Source: Escherichia coli O127:H6 str. E2348/69 (GTDB lineage Bacteria; Pseudomonadota; Gammaproteobacteria; Enterobacterales; Enterobacteriaceae). Taken from it: DNA of 6,147 nt. Made by a program: the position numbers and the translations under genes. The notes under the pieces are model-generated. The model was not told the origin of the DNA, did no database searches, and saw only the letters and a program-made list of their open reading frames with translations. Positions 1,821 to 6,147 of this stretch are shown in pieces (positions within the stretch are counted from its first letter, which is position 1; every line of letters starts with the position of its first letter). The stretch lies in NCBI RefSeq assembly GCF_000026545.1, contig NC_011602.1; one strand, written 5' to 3'.

Positions 1821-2656
1821 TGTTCATGCCGCCTGTTTTTCCTGCTCATTGGCACGTTTCGCAACCTGTTCTCATTGCGGACACCTTTTCCAGCCTCGTT
1901 TGGAAAGTTTCATTGCCAGACGGGACTCCTGCAATCGTCAAGGGATTGAAACCTATAGAAGACATTGCTGATGAACTGCGCGGGGCCGACTATCTGGTAT
2001 GGCGCAATGGGAGGGGAGCAGTCCGGTTGCTCGGTCGTGAGAACAATCTGATGTTGCTCGAATATGCCGGGGAGCGAATGCTCTCTCACATCGTTGCCGA
2101 GCACGGCGACTACCAGGCGACCGAAATTGCAGCGGAACTAATGGCGAAGCTGTATGCCGCATCTGAGGAACCCCTGCCTTCTGCCCTTCTCCCGATCCGG
2201 GATCGCTTTGCAGCTTTGTTTCAGCGGGCGCGCGATGATCAAAACGCAGGTTGTCAAACTGACTACGTCCACGCGGCGATTATAGCCGATCAAATGATGA
2301 GCAATGCCTCGGAACTGCGTGGGCTACATGGCGATCTGCATCATGAAAACATCATGTTCTCCAGTCGCGGCTGGCTGGTGATAGATCCCGTCGGTCTGGT
2401 CGGTGAAGTGGGCTTTGGCGCCGCCAATATGTTCTACGATCCGGCTGACAGAGACGACCTTTGTCTCGATCCTAGACGCATTGCACAGATGGCGGACGCA
2501 TTCTCTCGTGCGCTGGACGTCGATCCGCGTCGCCTGCTCGACCAGGCGTACGCTTATGGGTGCCTTTCCGCAGCTTGGAACGCGGATGGAGAAGAGGAGC
2601 AACGCGATCTAGCTATCGCGGCCGCGATCAAGCAGGTGCGACAGACGTCATACTAG
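1820..2656 (+). CDS. strB: Aminoglycoside 6-phosphotransferase APH(6)-Id (streptomycin resistance, StrB)
   Basis: 278-aa product starting MFMPPVFPAHWHVSQ at ATG 1820, which overlaps the strA stop by 1 bp (TGATG), suggesting translational coupling. The ORF track extends the frame to a TTG at 1811, but the canonical StrB N-terminus supports 1820. Stop TAG at 2654-2656. Confidence 0.94.
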   Translation: MFMPPVFPAHWHVSQPVLIADTFSSLVWKVSLPDGTPAIVKGLKPIEDIADELRGADYLVWRNGRGAVRLLGRENNLMLLEYAGERMLSHIVAEHGDYQATEIAAELMAKLYAASEEPLPSALLPIRDRFAALFQRARDDQNAGCQTDYVHAAIIADQMMSNASELRGLHGDLHHENIMFSSRGWLVIDPVGLVGEVGFGAANMFYDPADRDDLCLDPRRIAQMADAFSRALDVDPRRLLDQAYAYGCLSAAWNADGEEEQRDLAIAAAIKQVRQTSY

Positions 2657-3167
2657 ATATCAAGCGACTTCTCCTATCCCCTGGGAACACATCAATCTCA
2701 CCGGAGAATATCGCTGGCCAAAGCCTTAGCGTAGGATTCCGCCCCTTCCCGCAAACGACCCCAAACAGGAAACGCAGCTGAAACGGGAAGCTCAACACCC
2801 ACTGACGCATGGGTTGTTCAGGCAGTACTTCATCAACCAGCAAGGCGGCACTTTCGGCCATCCGCCGCGCCCCACAGCTCGGGCAGAAACCGCGACGCTT
2901 ACAGCTGAAAGCGACCAGGTGCTCGGCGTGGCAAGACTCGCAGCGAACCCGTAGAAAGCCATGCTCCAGCCGCCCGCATTGGAGAAATTCTTCAAATTCC
3001 CGTTGCACATAGCCCGGCAATTCCTTTCCCTGCTCTGCCATAAGCGCAGCGAATGCCGGGTAATACTCGTCAACGATCTGATAGAGAAGGGTTTGCTCGG
3101 GTCGGTGGCTCTGGTAACGACCAGTATCCCGATCCCGGCTGGCCGTCCTGGCCGCCACATGAGGCAT
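2628..3167 (-). mobile_element. IS91-family (ISCR-like) rolling-circle transposase, 5' fragment only (N-terminal zinc-binding domain; catalytic HUH/Tyr domain absent)
   Basis: The minus-strand ORF starts at ATG (complement of 3165-3167) and encodes ...RPEQTLLYQIVDEYYPAF...CGRLEHGFLRVRCESCHAEHLVAFSCKRRGFCPSCGARRMAESAALLVDEVLPEQPMRQWVLSFPFQLR, the conserved N-terminal Cys-rich zinc-binding signature of IS91/ISCR transposases. Only about 540 bp are available where a full gene needs about 1.2-1.5 kb, and the reading frame runs into the 3' end of strB, so the gene is truncated. Assignment to CR2/ISCR2, the usual partner of sul2, is an inference I could not verify. The exact point where homology ends (somewhere between 2657 and about 2800) is unknown. 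Confidence 0.7.
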
Positions 3168-3186
3168 GTTCCGCGTCCTTGCAATA

Positions 3187-3202
3187 CTGTGTTTACATAC
3201 AG
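3187..3202. promoter_or_regulatory. LexA (SOS) box-like palindrome CTGTGTTTACATACAG (CTGT-N8-ACAG)
   Basis: Perfect CTGT-N8-ACAG with an AT-rich spacer, flanked TA...T as in the E. coli consensus TACTGT-N8-ACAGTA. It lies about 20 bp upstream of the transposase-fragment start codon on the minus strand, and about 19 of 21 bases match the second LexA box at 3651-3666. Function unproven. Confidence 0.45.
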
Positions 3203-3210
3203 TCTATCGC

Positions 3211-3600
3211 TTAGCGGAAAGTTCTTTTACCCTCAGCCGAAATGCCTGCCGTTGCTAGACATTGCCAGCCAGTGCCCGTCACTCCCACTCTTACATTGTT
3301 CGCAGTATCTAGGTACATGTTATTGCGTGCACCTTCATGATGTATAATGTTATTAATGACAGCAGAAAGATCGACAGAATTAATATTCTTCGTACCTGGG
3401 ACAGTTATCGGGTGTCGGCCAGTGATGAGACCAAAGGATGCAGTATAAGATGAACCACTACTATTATCATGGCCACCATTACCACCACCGTTAAAACTAC
3501 CTCCCGAACTTCCAGAGCCGCTATGACCATCATTGTAGGGGTCATTTGGTCCCATGTGACCAAAACCACCGACAGTACCGCTATTTAACTCTGTACTCAT
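3211..3600 (-). CDS. Glycine/serine-rich 129-aa protein of unknown function; colicin-like disordered N-terminus; SOS-box promoter
   Basis: ATG at complement of 3598-3600 with a strong RBS AGAGGA (3608-3613) 7 nt upstream. Product MSTELNSGTVGGFGHMGPNDPYNDGHSGSGSSGGSFNGGGNGGHDNSSGSS... followed by about 70 less biased residues. The ORF track starts the frame 11 codons upstream (3633), but the RBS supports 3600. The coding call is supported mainly by the RBS and promoter architecture; the product class is not established. Confidence 0.55.
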   Translation of the reverse strand: MSTELNSGTVGGFGHMGPNDPYNDGHSGSGSSGGSFNGGGNGGHDNSSGSSYTASFGLITGRHPITVPGTKNINSVDLSAVINNIIHHEGARNNMYLDTANNVRVGVTGTGWQCLATAGISAEGKRTFR

Positions 3601-3636
3601 AAAATTATCCTCTTTGACTTTTAAAAACAGCAAAAA

Positions 3637-3666
3637 CTGTATTTATAACAATGTGTTTATATACAG
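3637..3666 (-). promoter_or_regulatory. Tandem overlapping LexA boxes (colicin-type SOS operator)
   Basis: The plus strand reads CTGTATTTATAACAATGTGTTTATATACAG: box 1 at 3637-3652 (CTGT-N8-CAAT, degenerate inner half) and box 2 at 3651-3666 (ATGT-N8-ACAG), overlapping by 2 bp. This resembles the overlapping dual SOS boxes of colicin operons and sits between a candidate -10 and the RBS of the glycine-rich ORF. Confidence 0.65.
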
Positions 3667-3674
3667 TATTCGAA

Positions 3675-3704
3675 ATACTACGCCCGTCAAAACCACACCG
3701 TCAA
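3675..3704 (-). promoter_or_regulatory. Candidate sigma70 promoter for the glycine-rich ORF
   Basis: On the minus strand: -35 TTGACG (3699-3704), 18-bp spacer, -10 TAGTAT (3675-3680), immediately upstream of the LexA boxes. An alternative -35 TTGACG at 3685-3690 with -10 TACTGT would overlap box 2. Sequence-based only. Confidence 0.4.
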
Positions 3705-3817
3705 CAGGTTTTTTGTGTATTTTTCACGCCTCACGGGCAGCCTCAGACCTTTTGTGTTAAAACAGTAATATGTTCTGCTGTTACAATACGGTACACACAG
3801 GAGACACTGTCACTTTT

Positions 3818-4258
3818 ATGGCATGGCACACAGTTCAAGAGACACTGAAATTAACAGGAAAGTCGCGCTCGCAATTATATCGTGACATGGCTAAAGGCCT
3901 TGTCAGCTATCGCACAGGAAAAAATGATCGCCGGGAGTTCGAGACCAGTGAACTGATTCGGGCCTATGGCGAGCTGCGCACTTCTGAGACACCAAAAAGG
4001 CACAAGGAGGGACACTCCAAATCTGTCGTTAGCCAGGCGGAAAATGCTCAGCTAGACGTCATTCAGCAGAAACTGGACGCTCTGCAGCAGACTGTTACCC
4101 TAATGCTTGAAGACAAGATGGCGCGGGAAGCAGAAAACCGCCTGCGAAATGAGGAGAGGGAACAACTACAGGCCGAAATTAGCCGTCTGGCTGACGCGCT
4201 GGCACAGGAAAAAAAGCGGGGATTCTGGTCGCGGCTGTTTCGCTCCGGTTCAGAGTAA
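3818..4258 (+). CDS. Putative helix-turn-helix DNA-binding protein with C-terminal coiled coil (146 aa; function unknown)
   Basis: ORF with stop TAA at 4256-4258. The preferred start is ATG 3818 (MAWHTVQETLKLTGKSRSQLYRDMAKGLV...), preceded by AGGAG at 3799-3803 (14-nt spacing, longer than ideal) and an extended -10 TGtTACAAT at 3778-3787. An alternative in-frame ATG at 3770 gives 162 aa. The N-terminus looks like an AlpA/excisionase/MerR-like HTH; the C-terminal roughly 70 aa are heptad-like and rich in charged residues and Gln/Leu (...LDALQQTVTLMLEDKMAREAENRLRNEEREQLQAEISRLADALAQEKK) with a basic amphipathic tail. Confidence 0.55.
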   Translation: MAWHTVQETLKLTGKSRSQLYRDMAKGLVSYRTGKNDRREFETSELIRAYGELRTSETPKRHKEGHSKSVVSQAENAQLDVIQQKLDALQQTVTLMLEDKMAREAENRLRNEEREQLQAEISRLADALAQEKKRGFWSRLFRSGSE

Positions 4259-4852
4259 CAGTGCAGGTGACTCTGATTTACCATAACATCTGTTATCAGC
4301 ACCGCCTGAGAGGCCCTCAGGGCGTTTCTGACGGGAAACCGGTAAAACAGGCAACAAACCACCCGAAAACCCGCCAGAAACGCGCAGGCTCTGTTTTTAC
4401 GGCATGCATGAGTATGCGCACAAGTGCATAGCGCGGAAATTCACACCATTCAGCCGGGGTAAGTCCTGTTTCCGGCGTTCTTCCCATCCGAAAACGGTGA
4501 ACGGGGACGCAATTTATTGCGTGGCCGTGAAGCGTTGCCGGCGCAGCCGGAAAACCCGCTGTCAGCACGTTCAGGAAGGGGGTGATGTACAAATGGCACA
4601 GAGGATGAAAGTGACGTATGAGCTGAAGGAGCGATGTAATTCTGTAGTCAGGAAGAATAACCCGTTCATGCAGGCATGAACGATACAGTGAGGAACGCTT
4701 TTTTTGTCACGATCTCCCCTTAACCTGCGTAAATCACCCGCCATGGTTGATTATTTTTCAACCTCAAAATGGTCATACACCTAACGCAGCCGCGATTTTC
4801 ATCGCAACTGCATGAATTAAAAGAAAAAAAAGGAATATTTCGTTTTCACGAG

Positions 4853-5200: not shown

Positions 5201-5399
5201 CCACGATTGCGAAAATCAGTGAAGTGCTTCATGTGGCAGGAGAAAAAAGGCAGCACCGGCGCGTCAGCAGAATATGCGATACAGGAGATATTCCGCTTCC
5301 TCGCTCACTGACTCGCTACGCTCGGTCGTTCGGCTGCGGCGAGCGGTACCGGCTTACGGACGGGGACGGAAATTTCCTGGAAGATACCAGGAAGACACT

Positions 5400-5470
5400 T
5401 AGCAAAGAAGAGATAAGGCCACGGCGAAGCCGTTTTTCCATAGGCTCCGCCCCCCTGACAAGCATCGCAA
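5400..5470 (-). other. ColE1/p15A-type origin of replication (RNA-DNA transition region)
   Basis: AAGCCGTTTTTCCATAGGCTCCGCCCCCCTGACAAGCATC matches the conserved ori core of p15A/pMB1 replicons as recalled. It lies about 520-550 nt downstream of the inferred RNA II start, on the minus strand. Leading-strand replication is inferred to proceed leftward. Confidence 0.6.
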
Positions 5471-5955
5471 AATCTGACGCTCAAATCAGTGGTGGCGAAA
5501 CCCGACAGGACTATAAAGATCCCAGGCGTTTCCCCCTGGTAGCTCCCTCGTGCGCTCTCCTGTTCCTGCCTTTCGGTTTACCGGTGTCATTCCGCTGTTA
5601 TGGCCGCGGTTTCTCATTCCACGCCTGACACTCAGTTCCGTGAAGGCAGTTCGCTCCAAGCTGGACTGTATGCACGAACCCCCCGTTCAGTCCGACCGCT
5701 GCGCCTTGTCCGGTAACTATCAACTTGAGTCCAACCCGGAAAGACACGACAAAACGCCACTGGCAGCAGCCATTAGTAACAGGAGTGCACGAGAAGATAG
5801 ATTAAGAGGTCTTGAAGTAGAGGCCTGACTGCGGCTACACTGAAAGAACAGTTTTGGTAATGGCGGTCTCGTGAACCCTGTTACCGGGTTAAGCAGTTCC
5901 CCAACTGACTTAACCTTCGAACAAACCGCCTCCCCAGGCGGTTTTTTCGTTTACA
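5432..5955 (-). ncRNA. RNA II pre-primer transcript (approximate extent)
   Basis: Minus-strand promoter with -35 TTGAGA (complement of 5986-5991), 17-bp spacer, -10 TAATCT (complement of 5963-5968). The transcribed region is collinear with the p15A RNA II region as recalled, with many substitutions. Ends are approximate. Confidence 0.6.
5848..5947 (+). ncRNA. RNA I antisense copy-number control RNA (approximate extent)
   Basis: Plus-strand promoter with -35 TTGAAG (5812-5817), 18-bp spacer, -10 TACACT (5836-5841), and a start near ACAGTTTTGG as in ColE1 RNA I. It ends at an intrinsic terminator, CCGCC-TCCCCA-GGCGG plus T7 (5925-5947). It is antisense to the 5' end of RNA II. Confidence 0.6.
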
Positions 5956-6147
5956 GAGCAAGAGATTACGATTCATTGAAAAGGATCTCAAGAAGATCCT
6001 TTGTAGATTACTATCAATTAATCTTCCGAACATGACACCAGTCACTGTTGATTACGGTTAAACCGCTCCGTAACAGGTTTCCCTCGTATTGGTGACTTGC
6101 AGCACCAAAGAAGCAAAAAAGATAAATATATCTACTTATTGAGAGAT

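Follow-up and report, generated by a model that had tools for sequence, protein, structure and literature searches.

Organisation of the plasmid

The window (the whole stretch of 6147 bp analysed here) belongs to the p9123/pVI678 type of small ColE1-like resistance plasmids. It runs collinear with pVI678 (NC_008597, 6222 bp) apart from a deletion of 75 bp. The resistance genes sul2 (141-956), strA (1017-1820) and strB (ending at 2656) are followed by a fragment of the mobile element ISCR2, in whose leader lies the LexA box studied here (3187-3202, minus strand). A search of the window against Rfam returned RNAI only (5849-5950) and nothing near this box. It may be noted that the 75-bp deletion with respect to pVI678 falls at window ~4608-4639, where it is flanked by a repeat of ~32 bp and the blast alignments overlap. 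A 4068-bp Enterobacter plasmid (L003) that has the same backbone without the resistance genes was used for comparison by blastn. It matches window 3284-4443 and window 5277-6147 continuing into 1-44, and the resistance segment (45 to ~3290) is found to have replaced 1085 bp of the backbone.

On the minus strand beside this segment (3291-3600), a pesticin-like (T4-lysozyme-like) bacteriocin gene that belongs to the backbone keeps only its N-terminal 103 codons, the resistance segment having truncated it. NCBIfam gave no match for the 103-aa fragment, and its identity comes from the intact homologue in L003 only. The intact protein has 260 aa (L003:844-1626) with a glycine-rich N-terminus, and its C-terminal part has weak matches to Phage_lysozyme (E=1.5e-3) and Pesticin (E=1.7e-3) in Pfam and to T4 lysozyme (E ~0.03); we take it for a predicted pesticin-like bacteriocin. 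In the window the cut follows residue 103 and lies within the catalytic E...D...T motif; the remnant is fused to 37 codons of the ISCR2 leader to give the annotated 140-aa 'hypothetical protein' (window 3291-3633, minus strand). The truncated gene is still preceded by an intact SOS-type bacteriocin promoter with tandem LexA boxes (3637-3704, minus strand). Here the promoter scan gave a sigma-70-like promoter at 3675-3704 (TTGACG, 18 nt spacer, TAGTAT), and between it and the bacteriocin ATG there is a double LexA operator at 3637-3666, in which a strong box (3651-3666, 18.6 bits) overlaps a weak one (3637-3652, 9.5 bits), i.e. a colicin-type tandem SOS operator by definition. A divergent gene of L003 (L003:1653-2252) for a 199-aa putative immunity protein with an apparent signal peptide is deleted in the window. 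Downstream of the bacteriocin promoter region the window has a 146-aa ORF (3818-4258, plus strand) with a weak NCBIfam match to 'plasmid replication DNA-binding protein' (rep_pAB02_ORF2, E=2.3e-11, below cutoff).

The rcr2 remnant and the ends of the ISCR2 segment

Using blastn against a complete ISCR2 (L001, on an Edwardsiella IncC plasmid), we found that window 2762-3290 matches with 99.8% identity. This region contains the 5′ remnant of rcr2, the ISCR2 transposase gene, as codons 1-135 of 497 (2762-3167, minus strand), which is also recognised by the NCBIfam model ISCR_clade_Ia (E=2.9e-56, residues 12-136 only). The homology ends at 2762, beside the end of strB, and the minus-strand ORF 2628-3167 continues past the remnant into unrelated sequence. 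A complete transposase would have 497 codons with a zinc-binding domain and the PF04986 catalytic domain; with only codons 1-135 remaining, the catalytic HUH/Y2 part is missing. Since the window matches the full ISCR2 locus at 2762-3290 alone, the oriIS end is absent as well.

The other end of the segment is preserved. Its outer limit is exactly the att core of a GIsul2-type integrase (attLR), GAGTGGGA, at 3290-3283 on the minus strand, which is an exact match to the core defined in PMC9376610. The putative terIS of CR2, GGGAGTGACGGGCACTGGC, occupies 3286-3268 on the same strand and is identical both to the sequence in PMC9376610, where it is described as starting within the att core, and to the primer Prcr2L-EcoRI. 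According to the same study (Front Microbiol 2022;13:905865, PMC9376610), the GIsul2 integrase excises and integrates GIsul2 and the 'CR2-sul2 unit', and the attLR that it uses lies 112-130 bp upstream of rcr2. As in these units, the att core and the putative terIS come just before the LexA box in the window. Unlike them, the window keeps only the rcr2-side end, the sul2-side end being cut ~96 bp upstream of sul2 and not at attR, and it contains no integrase. The overlap between ISCR2 and backbone is of 6 bp, AGTGGG (3284-3289), as L003 matches down to 3284 and ISCR2 up to 3290. The L003 backbone at this junction (L003:1150-1165) reads CAGTGGGG, which is similar to the secondary sites of reduced specificity ('TGGG') that PMC9376610 describes. 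Judging from this resemblance, the right-hand junction may have been made by the integrase at a secondary site, with a further deletion on the sul2 side and the loss of 1085 bp of backbone. A repeat and hairpin search of 3160-3300 found nothing, and no terIS inverted repeats were seen with the tool used.

Because the junction between ISCR2 and the backbone is at 3284-3290, the LexA box lies 82-88 bp inside ISCR2-derived DNA. Alignment with the ISCR2 ends, suggested in the first-pass annotation as the way of deciding whether the box belongs to the element or to the backbone, therefore assigns it to the element, and the same sequence recurs in thousands of ISCR2 copies whose surroundings are unrelated. 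Window 3286-3165 is identical to the ISCR2 upstream sequence of AY055428 (SXT), and 3150-3290 is matched at 100% in a sample spread over the 3772 plasmid records that match. These matches come from Escherichia, Klebsiella, Salmonella, Acinetobacter, Vibrio, Aeromonas, Edwardsiella and others, and in the spread sample many of them adjoin floR, LysR or resolvase genes with no bacteriocin nearby. Copies of ISCR2 on IncC plasmids, in SXT and on chromosomes without a bacteriocin gene also carry the box.

The LexA box and the rcr2 leader

The sequence CTGTGTTTACATACAG at 3187-3202 is an exact CTGT-N8-ACAG, as the first-pass annotation had it, and is the sole zero-mismatch match in the 6147-bp window. 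The plus strand around it is gcaataCTGTGTTTACATACAGtctatc, in which the 16-mer occupies 3187-3202; on the minus strand the palindrome reads CTGTATGTAAACACAG. The spacer is GTTTACAT, which gives the palindrome the A/T-rich spacer of the LexA operators of Beta- and Gammaproteobacteria. For scoring, a symmetrised position weight matrix was made from 29 E. coli LexA operators; its values are approximate. With this approximate matrix the 20-mer 3185-3204 has 20.4 bits, which is the highest score in the window and about 11th among the 29 training operators; the highest score in 200 shuffles was 17.9. The HI-like value of the box on the minus strand is 4.9 (training range 1.2-9.6, again from an approximate operator list). 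By chance, 6147/65536 or ~0.09 exact palindromic 8-base matches would be expected in a sequence of 6147 bp, in agreement with the value of roughly 0.1 in 6 kb estimated beforehand. On allowing up to one mismatch, 9 matches were found in the window against 1.66 expected. The surplus lies mostly in the GC-rich sul2 and strA with matrix scores below 7 bits, and probably reflects CTG/CAG codon usage instead of LexA; the one-mismatch positions include window 313, 382, 786, 1226, 4246 and 4559, and an A/T-rich one at 3347-3362 has 9.1 bits.

The box is inside a leader of 123 bp, which runs from the terIS/att end (3283-3290) to the start codon of rcr2 (3167, minus strand). The ATG begins 19 nt past the end of the box, close to the distance of about 20 bp given earlier for the transposase fragment, and is preceded at 8 nt by a Shine-Dalgarno-like AAGGA (3176-3180, minus strand) that is conserved in diverged relatives. 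The candidate -10 hexamer of the rcr2 promoter (Prcr2) is TAGACT (3204-3209, minus strand), which the flank of the operator overlaps and the box abuts. Its assignment is uncertain, as a published -10 mutant kept activity. It is absent from the list of the sigma-70 scan. The sigma-70 consensus scan found no promoter at Prcr2, a null result that is uninformative because the promoter is known to be weak. At the -35 position relative to TAGACT (window 3210-3250, alignment A3) ISCR2 has TAAAAG where most relatives have TTCAAG, and this difference in sequence might explain the very weak activity reported for Prcr2.

Published measurements on the same promoter

The first-pass annotation knew of no established LexA-regulated ISCR/IS91 transposase. 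This no longer holds, since Lallement, Jove, Pasternak, Da Re and Ploy report one in a 2025 preprint (bioRxiv 10.1101/2025.11.21.689736) and in J Bacteriol 2026;208(7):e00551-25 (PMC13393415). For ISCR1, ISCR2 and ISCR8 they describe CTGT-N8-ACAG boxes in the terIS leader that overlap the predicted -10, and a LexA box in 84% of the available rcr2 sequences (PMC13393415). Their sequence is the one found here. The 106-bp reporter fragment (primers Prcr2L-EcoRI and CP72) is identical to window 3181-3286, the last 122 nt of the ISCR2 upstream sequence in the supplement (AY055428) are window 3286-3165, the -10 candidate TAGACT is window 3209-3204, and the box is listed in Table S3 as 'ctgtatgtaaacacag' for ISCR2 copies. 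The two copies differ in that the published one comes from a complete ISCR2 on ICEPdaSpaI, whereas the window copy is cut after codon 135 and lacks oriIS.

Purified E. coli LexA shifts all three promoter fragments in EMSA, and a CAG->ACT mutation of the box abolishes the shift (PMC13393415), so the binding assay that had been suggested for this locus exists in print on the identical sequence. The suggested promoter fusion with and without DNA damage does so too, for 3181-3286, where mitomycin C gives a 2-fold increase for ISCR2 as compared with 7-fold for ISCR1 and 3.2-fold for ISCR8 (PMC13393415). All the lacZ fusions (Prcr1, Prcr2 and Prcr8) stay below 5 Miller units; deletion of lexA derepresses them 18.2-fold (ISCR1), 1.6-fold (ISCR2) and 4.1-fold (ISCR8), and mutation of the box raises them 48.5-, 14.5- and 10.6-fold, respectively (PMC13393415). 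For Prcr2 the box mutation (14.5-fold) thus stands against 1.6-fold for the lexA deletion (Fig. 3B and Table S1 of PMC13393415), and because the first effect far exceeds the second, the data suggest that the CAG->ACT change may alter the promoter itself. Also, mutating the putative -10 from TAGACT to CGGACT raised the activity of Prcr2 3.1-fold with no loss (PMC13393415). As activity was raised and not abolished, the Prcr2 promoter is not correctly mapped in the publication, and the authors themselves concede that it was possibly mis-assigned and invoke 'another regulatory mechanism' (PMC13393415).

ISCR1 and ISCR8 are like ISCR2 in having CTGT-N8-ACAG across the predicted -10, in the leader of the transposase gene near terIS, and differ from it in sequence (their -10 is TACTGT) and in being more strongly regulated (18.2- and 4.1-fold versus 1.6-fold in the lexA deletion). 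A wider parallel is offered by integrons, whose integrase promoters are reportedly LexA-repressed (Guerin et al. 2009, Science), a case to which PMC13393415 refers as background. There too the LexA of the host holds the recombination enzyme of a mobile element off and DNA damage, including the antibiotic-induced SOS response, releases it, but the integrase is a tyrosine recombinase whereas ISCR2 has an HUH rolling-circle-type transposase, and the sequences are unrelated.

The box in diverged relatives of rcr2

Relatives of Rcr2 were collected as 80 loci from a species-level genome collection, and 250 nt upstream of each start were scanned with the LexA matrix. All the ISCR2-identical copies among them carry the box. 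As the clinical ISCR2 copies are ~100% identical, their agreement says nothing on selection. More informative are nine loci with 71-88% aa identity (L066, L039, L013, L014, L074, L015, L068, L082 and L032), in which an intact CTGT-N8-ACAG precedes the ATG by 35-39 nt, and HdN1 (L051, 65%), where the distance is 24 nt and the upstream context is a different one. The spacers in these relatives are ATAAAAAC, ATATAAAC, ACAAAAAT, AAAAAAAT and ATGCATGT, which together with ISCR2's own ATGTAAAC make six variants in total. In one further locus (L060) an arm of the box is changed and the site weakened, in two (L017 and L073) the site is lost, and almost all the scanned relatives at 78% identity or below are without a box. 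Control windows inside genes score mostly below 5 bits, with a few stray matches up to 11.8.

On aligning ten homologous leaders, the arms were found to be 95% conserved, the spacer 85% and the upstream leader 82%. Conservation is also high over all of the 50 nt between the -10 and the ATG, so that well-kept arms do not prove selection by LexA in particular. The presence of the box in diverged relatives supports selection for LexA control on sequence grounds and is not decisive alone. What the present analysis adds to the published work is that rcr2 relatives of 65-88% identity, mostly beside guaA, keep the box at or near its ISCR2 position. It is a modest new point, in support of selection, which the near-identical clinical copies cannot show.

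The location beside guaA is itself regular. Most box-bearing relatives with homologous leaders lie 111-120 bp after the guaA stop (...KPPATIEWE*), and in most of them the att core GAGTGGGA lies at that guaA-side point; L082 has a degenerate core only, and L051 has neither the guaA tail nor the core. Eight loci of environmental Gammaproteobacteria (L013, L014, L015, L032, L039, L060, L066 and L068, at ~1380-1500 of each) have rcr2-like genes of 71-88% identity 111-120 bp past the guaA stop with a common order, seen also in L004:1372-1500, of att core, GGCACTGGCTGGCA-type repeats, LexA box (the weakened one in L060) and rcr. From this arrangement CR2-like units appear to be widespread guaA-targeted passengers. 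It is conceivable, though we put it forward with little confidence, that SOS control is an ancestral selected trait of the CR2-like clade and that a LexA-controlled Rcr may act outside classical IS91-type transposition. Since CR2-like units are moved by a tyrosine integrase (PMC9376610), Rcr may have an alternative role, e.g. in nicking or replicating the excised circle upon DNA damage.

Function of the site and alternative explanations

We consider it highly probable that 3187-3202 is the LexA operator of Prcr2, the transposase promoter of ISCR2 (CR2/ISVsa3), and that it is a passenger relic in this plasmid. The identity, position and boundaries of the site are established by the motif, the matrix, the alignments and the match to Table S3 and the primers of PMC13393415, and LexA binding and a modest SOS induction are established on the identical sequence by that publication. 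A LexA dimer at CTGTATGTAAACACAG would overlap the predicted -10 (TAGACT) and the start region and would keep the weak Prcr2 shut until LexA is cleaved, with stimulation by RecA, in the SOS response. For ISCR2, LexA would most naturally repress by covering the -10 and the start site. As the catalytic domain and oriIS are absent, the operator controls no functional transposase here. With rcr2 cut after codon 135, this copy would have lost its function and be carried along as a relic in the widespread sul2-strAB-deltaCR2 module. The earlier suggestion that the box places a rolling-circle transposase under SOS control is thus borne out for ISCR2 by the EMSA, with an in vivo effect that is small (1.6- to 2-fold), and does not apply to the truncated gene of this plasmid.

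The SOS operator of ISCR2 is genuine but already known, having been published in 2025-26. ISCR2 travels with sul2, floR, strAB and tet(X)-type genes, and a LexA switch on its transposase ties antibiotic-induced DNA damage to a possible mobilisation of resistance genes, a point that is now in print. The window adds no new principle to this, its operator being a fossil in the very common sul2-strA-strB-deltaCR2 module of small multicopy plasmids.

A point against LexA control is the small induction of Prcr2, which is at most 2-fold, with activity below 5 Miller units (PMC13393415). An alternative is that the site binds LexA and is nearly inert as a regulator in ISCR2, its thousands of copies being the product of the recent clonal spread of one element and rcr2 depending mostly on some other control, e.g. 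another sigma factor or read-through. The other regulatory mechanism invoked by the authors (PMC13393415), the near identity of ISCR2 copies, which leaves their agreement without evolutionary weight, and the TAAAAG that ISCR2 has in place of the TTCAAG of its relatives would all fit such an explanation. Against it, the diverged relatives (65-88% identity) keep the arms intact while the spacer varies, and ISCR1 and ISCR8 have boxes at the equivalent place with 18-fold and 4-fold derepression (PMC13393415). We regard it as unlikely.

It is very improbable that the palindrome arose by chance and binds no protein. Some ~0.09 exact matches are expected in 6 kb and no consensus promoter was detected around the site, but its matrix score exceeds that of each of the 200 shuffles and is of the size found for real operators, its position is kept in diverged relatives, and a specific LexA shift has been published on the identical sequence (PMC13393415).

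The box had also been described as a near-duplicate of the colicin-type operator at 3651-3666, with about 19 of 21 bases in common. The two are indeed alike, as TGTGTTTA[C/T]ATACAGT, but the figure needs a 2-nt gap; without gaps 15 of 16 positions agree. Over the 20-mers, the ISCR2 box and the strong bacteriocin box, which are 464 bp apart and have the same orientation, agree at 16 of 20 positions. This is no closer than the match of the ISCR2 box to the umuDC operator (17 of 20) or to dinD (16 of 20), and among pairs of unrelated chromosomal operators 6% attain 16 of 20. A local duplication of the 3651-3666 box was rejected on these same values. Given the equally close umuDC and dinD and the boundaries of ISCR2, the resemblance is read from sequence as that of a shared LexA consensus and not of common descent. 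The bacteriocin operator, some 450 bp away in front of the pesticin-like remnant, has this consensus in common with the ISCR2 box. Unlike colicin and bacteriocin SOS operators, in which tandem overlapping LexA boxes stand downstream of a strong promoter, the site at 3187-3202 is a single box at a very weak promoter of a different mobile element, in ISCR2-derived DNA where L003 has unrelated sequence. The proposal that it is a displaced half of a colicin or bacteriocin operon operator, left at a rearrangement junction, can hence be dismissed almost entirely: in its favour are only the 16 of 20 matches in the same orientation 464 bp off, which umuDC, dinD and 6% of unrelated pairs equal, while the junction is 82-88 bp from the box, the intact backbone of L003 has no such sequence at the corresponding place, and ISCR2 copies lacking any bacteriocin gene have the box.

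Transcription across the junction and spread of the truncated module

Terminator prediction gave no terminator-like site between 3900 and 2600. It is therefore possible, as a speculation, that transcription from the bacteriocin promoter and Prcr2 after DNA damage could run antisense into strB, strA and sul2. The sul2-strA-strB-delta-rcr2 module also occurs in a form cut short at window 3229 by a Tn2/Tn3-type blaTEM-1 transposon, in many plasmids of Klebsiella and Enterobacter. This cut (L084:2501-2580 corresponds to window 3150-3229) removes the terIS/att end and keeps the LexA box together with the -10.
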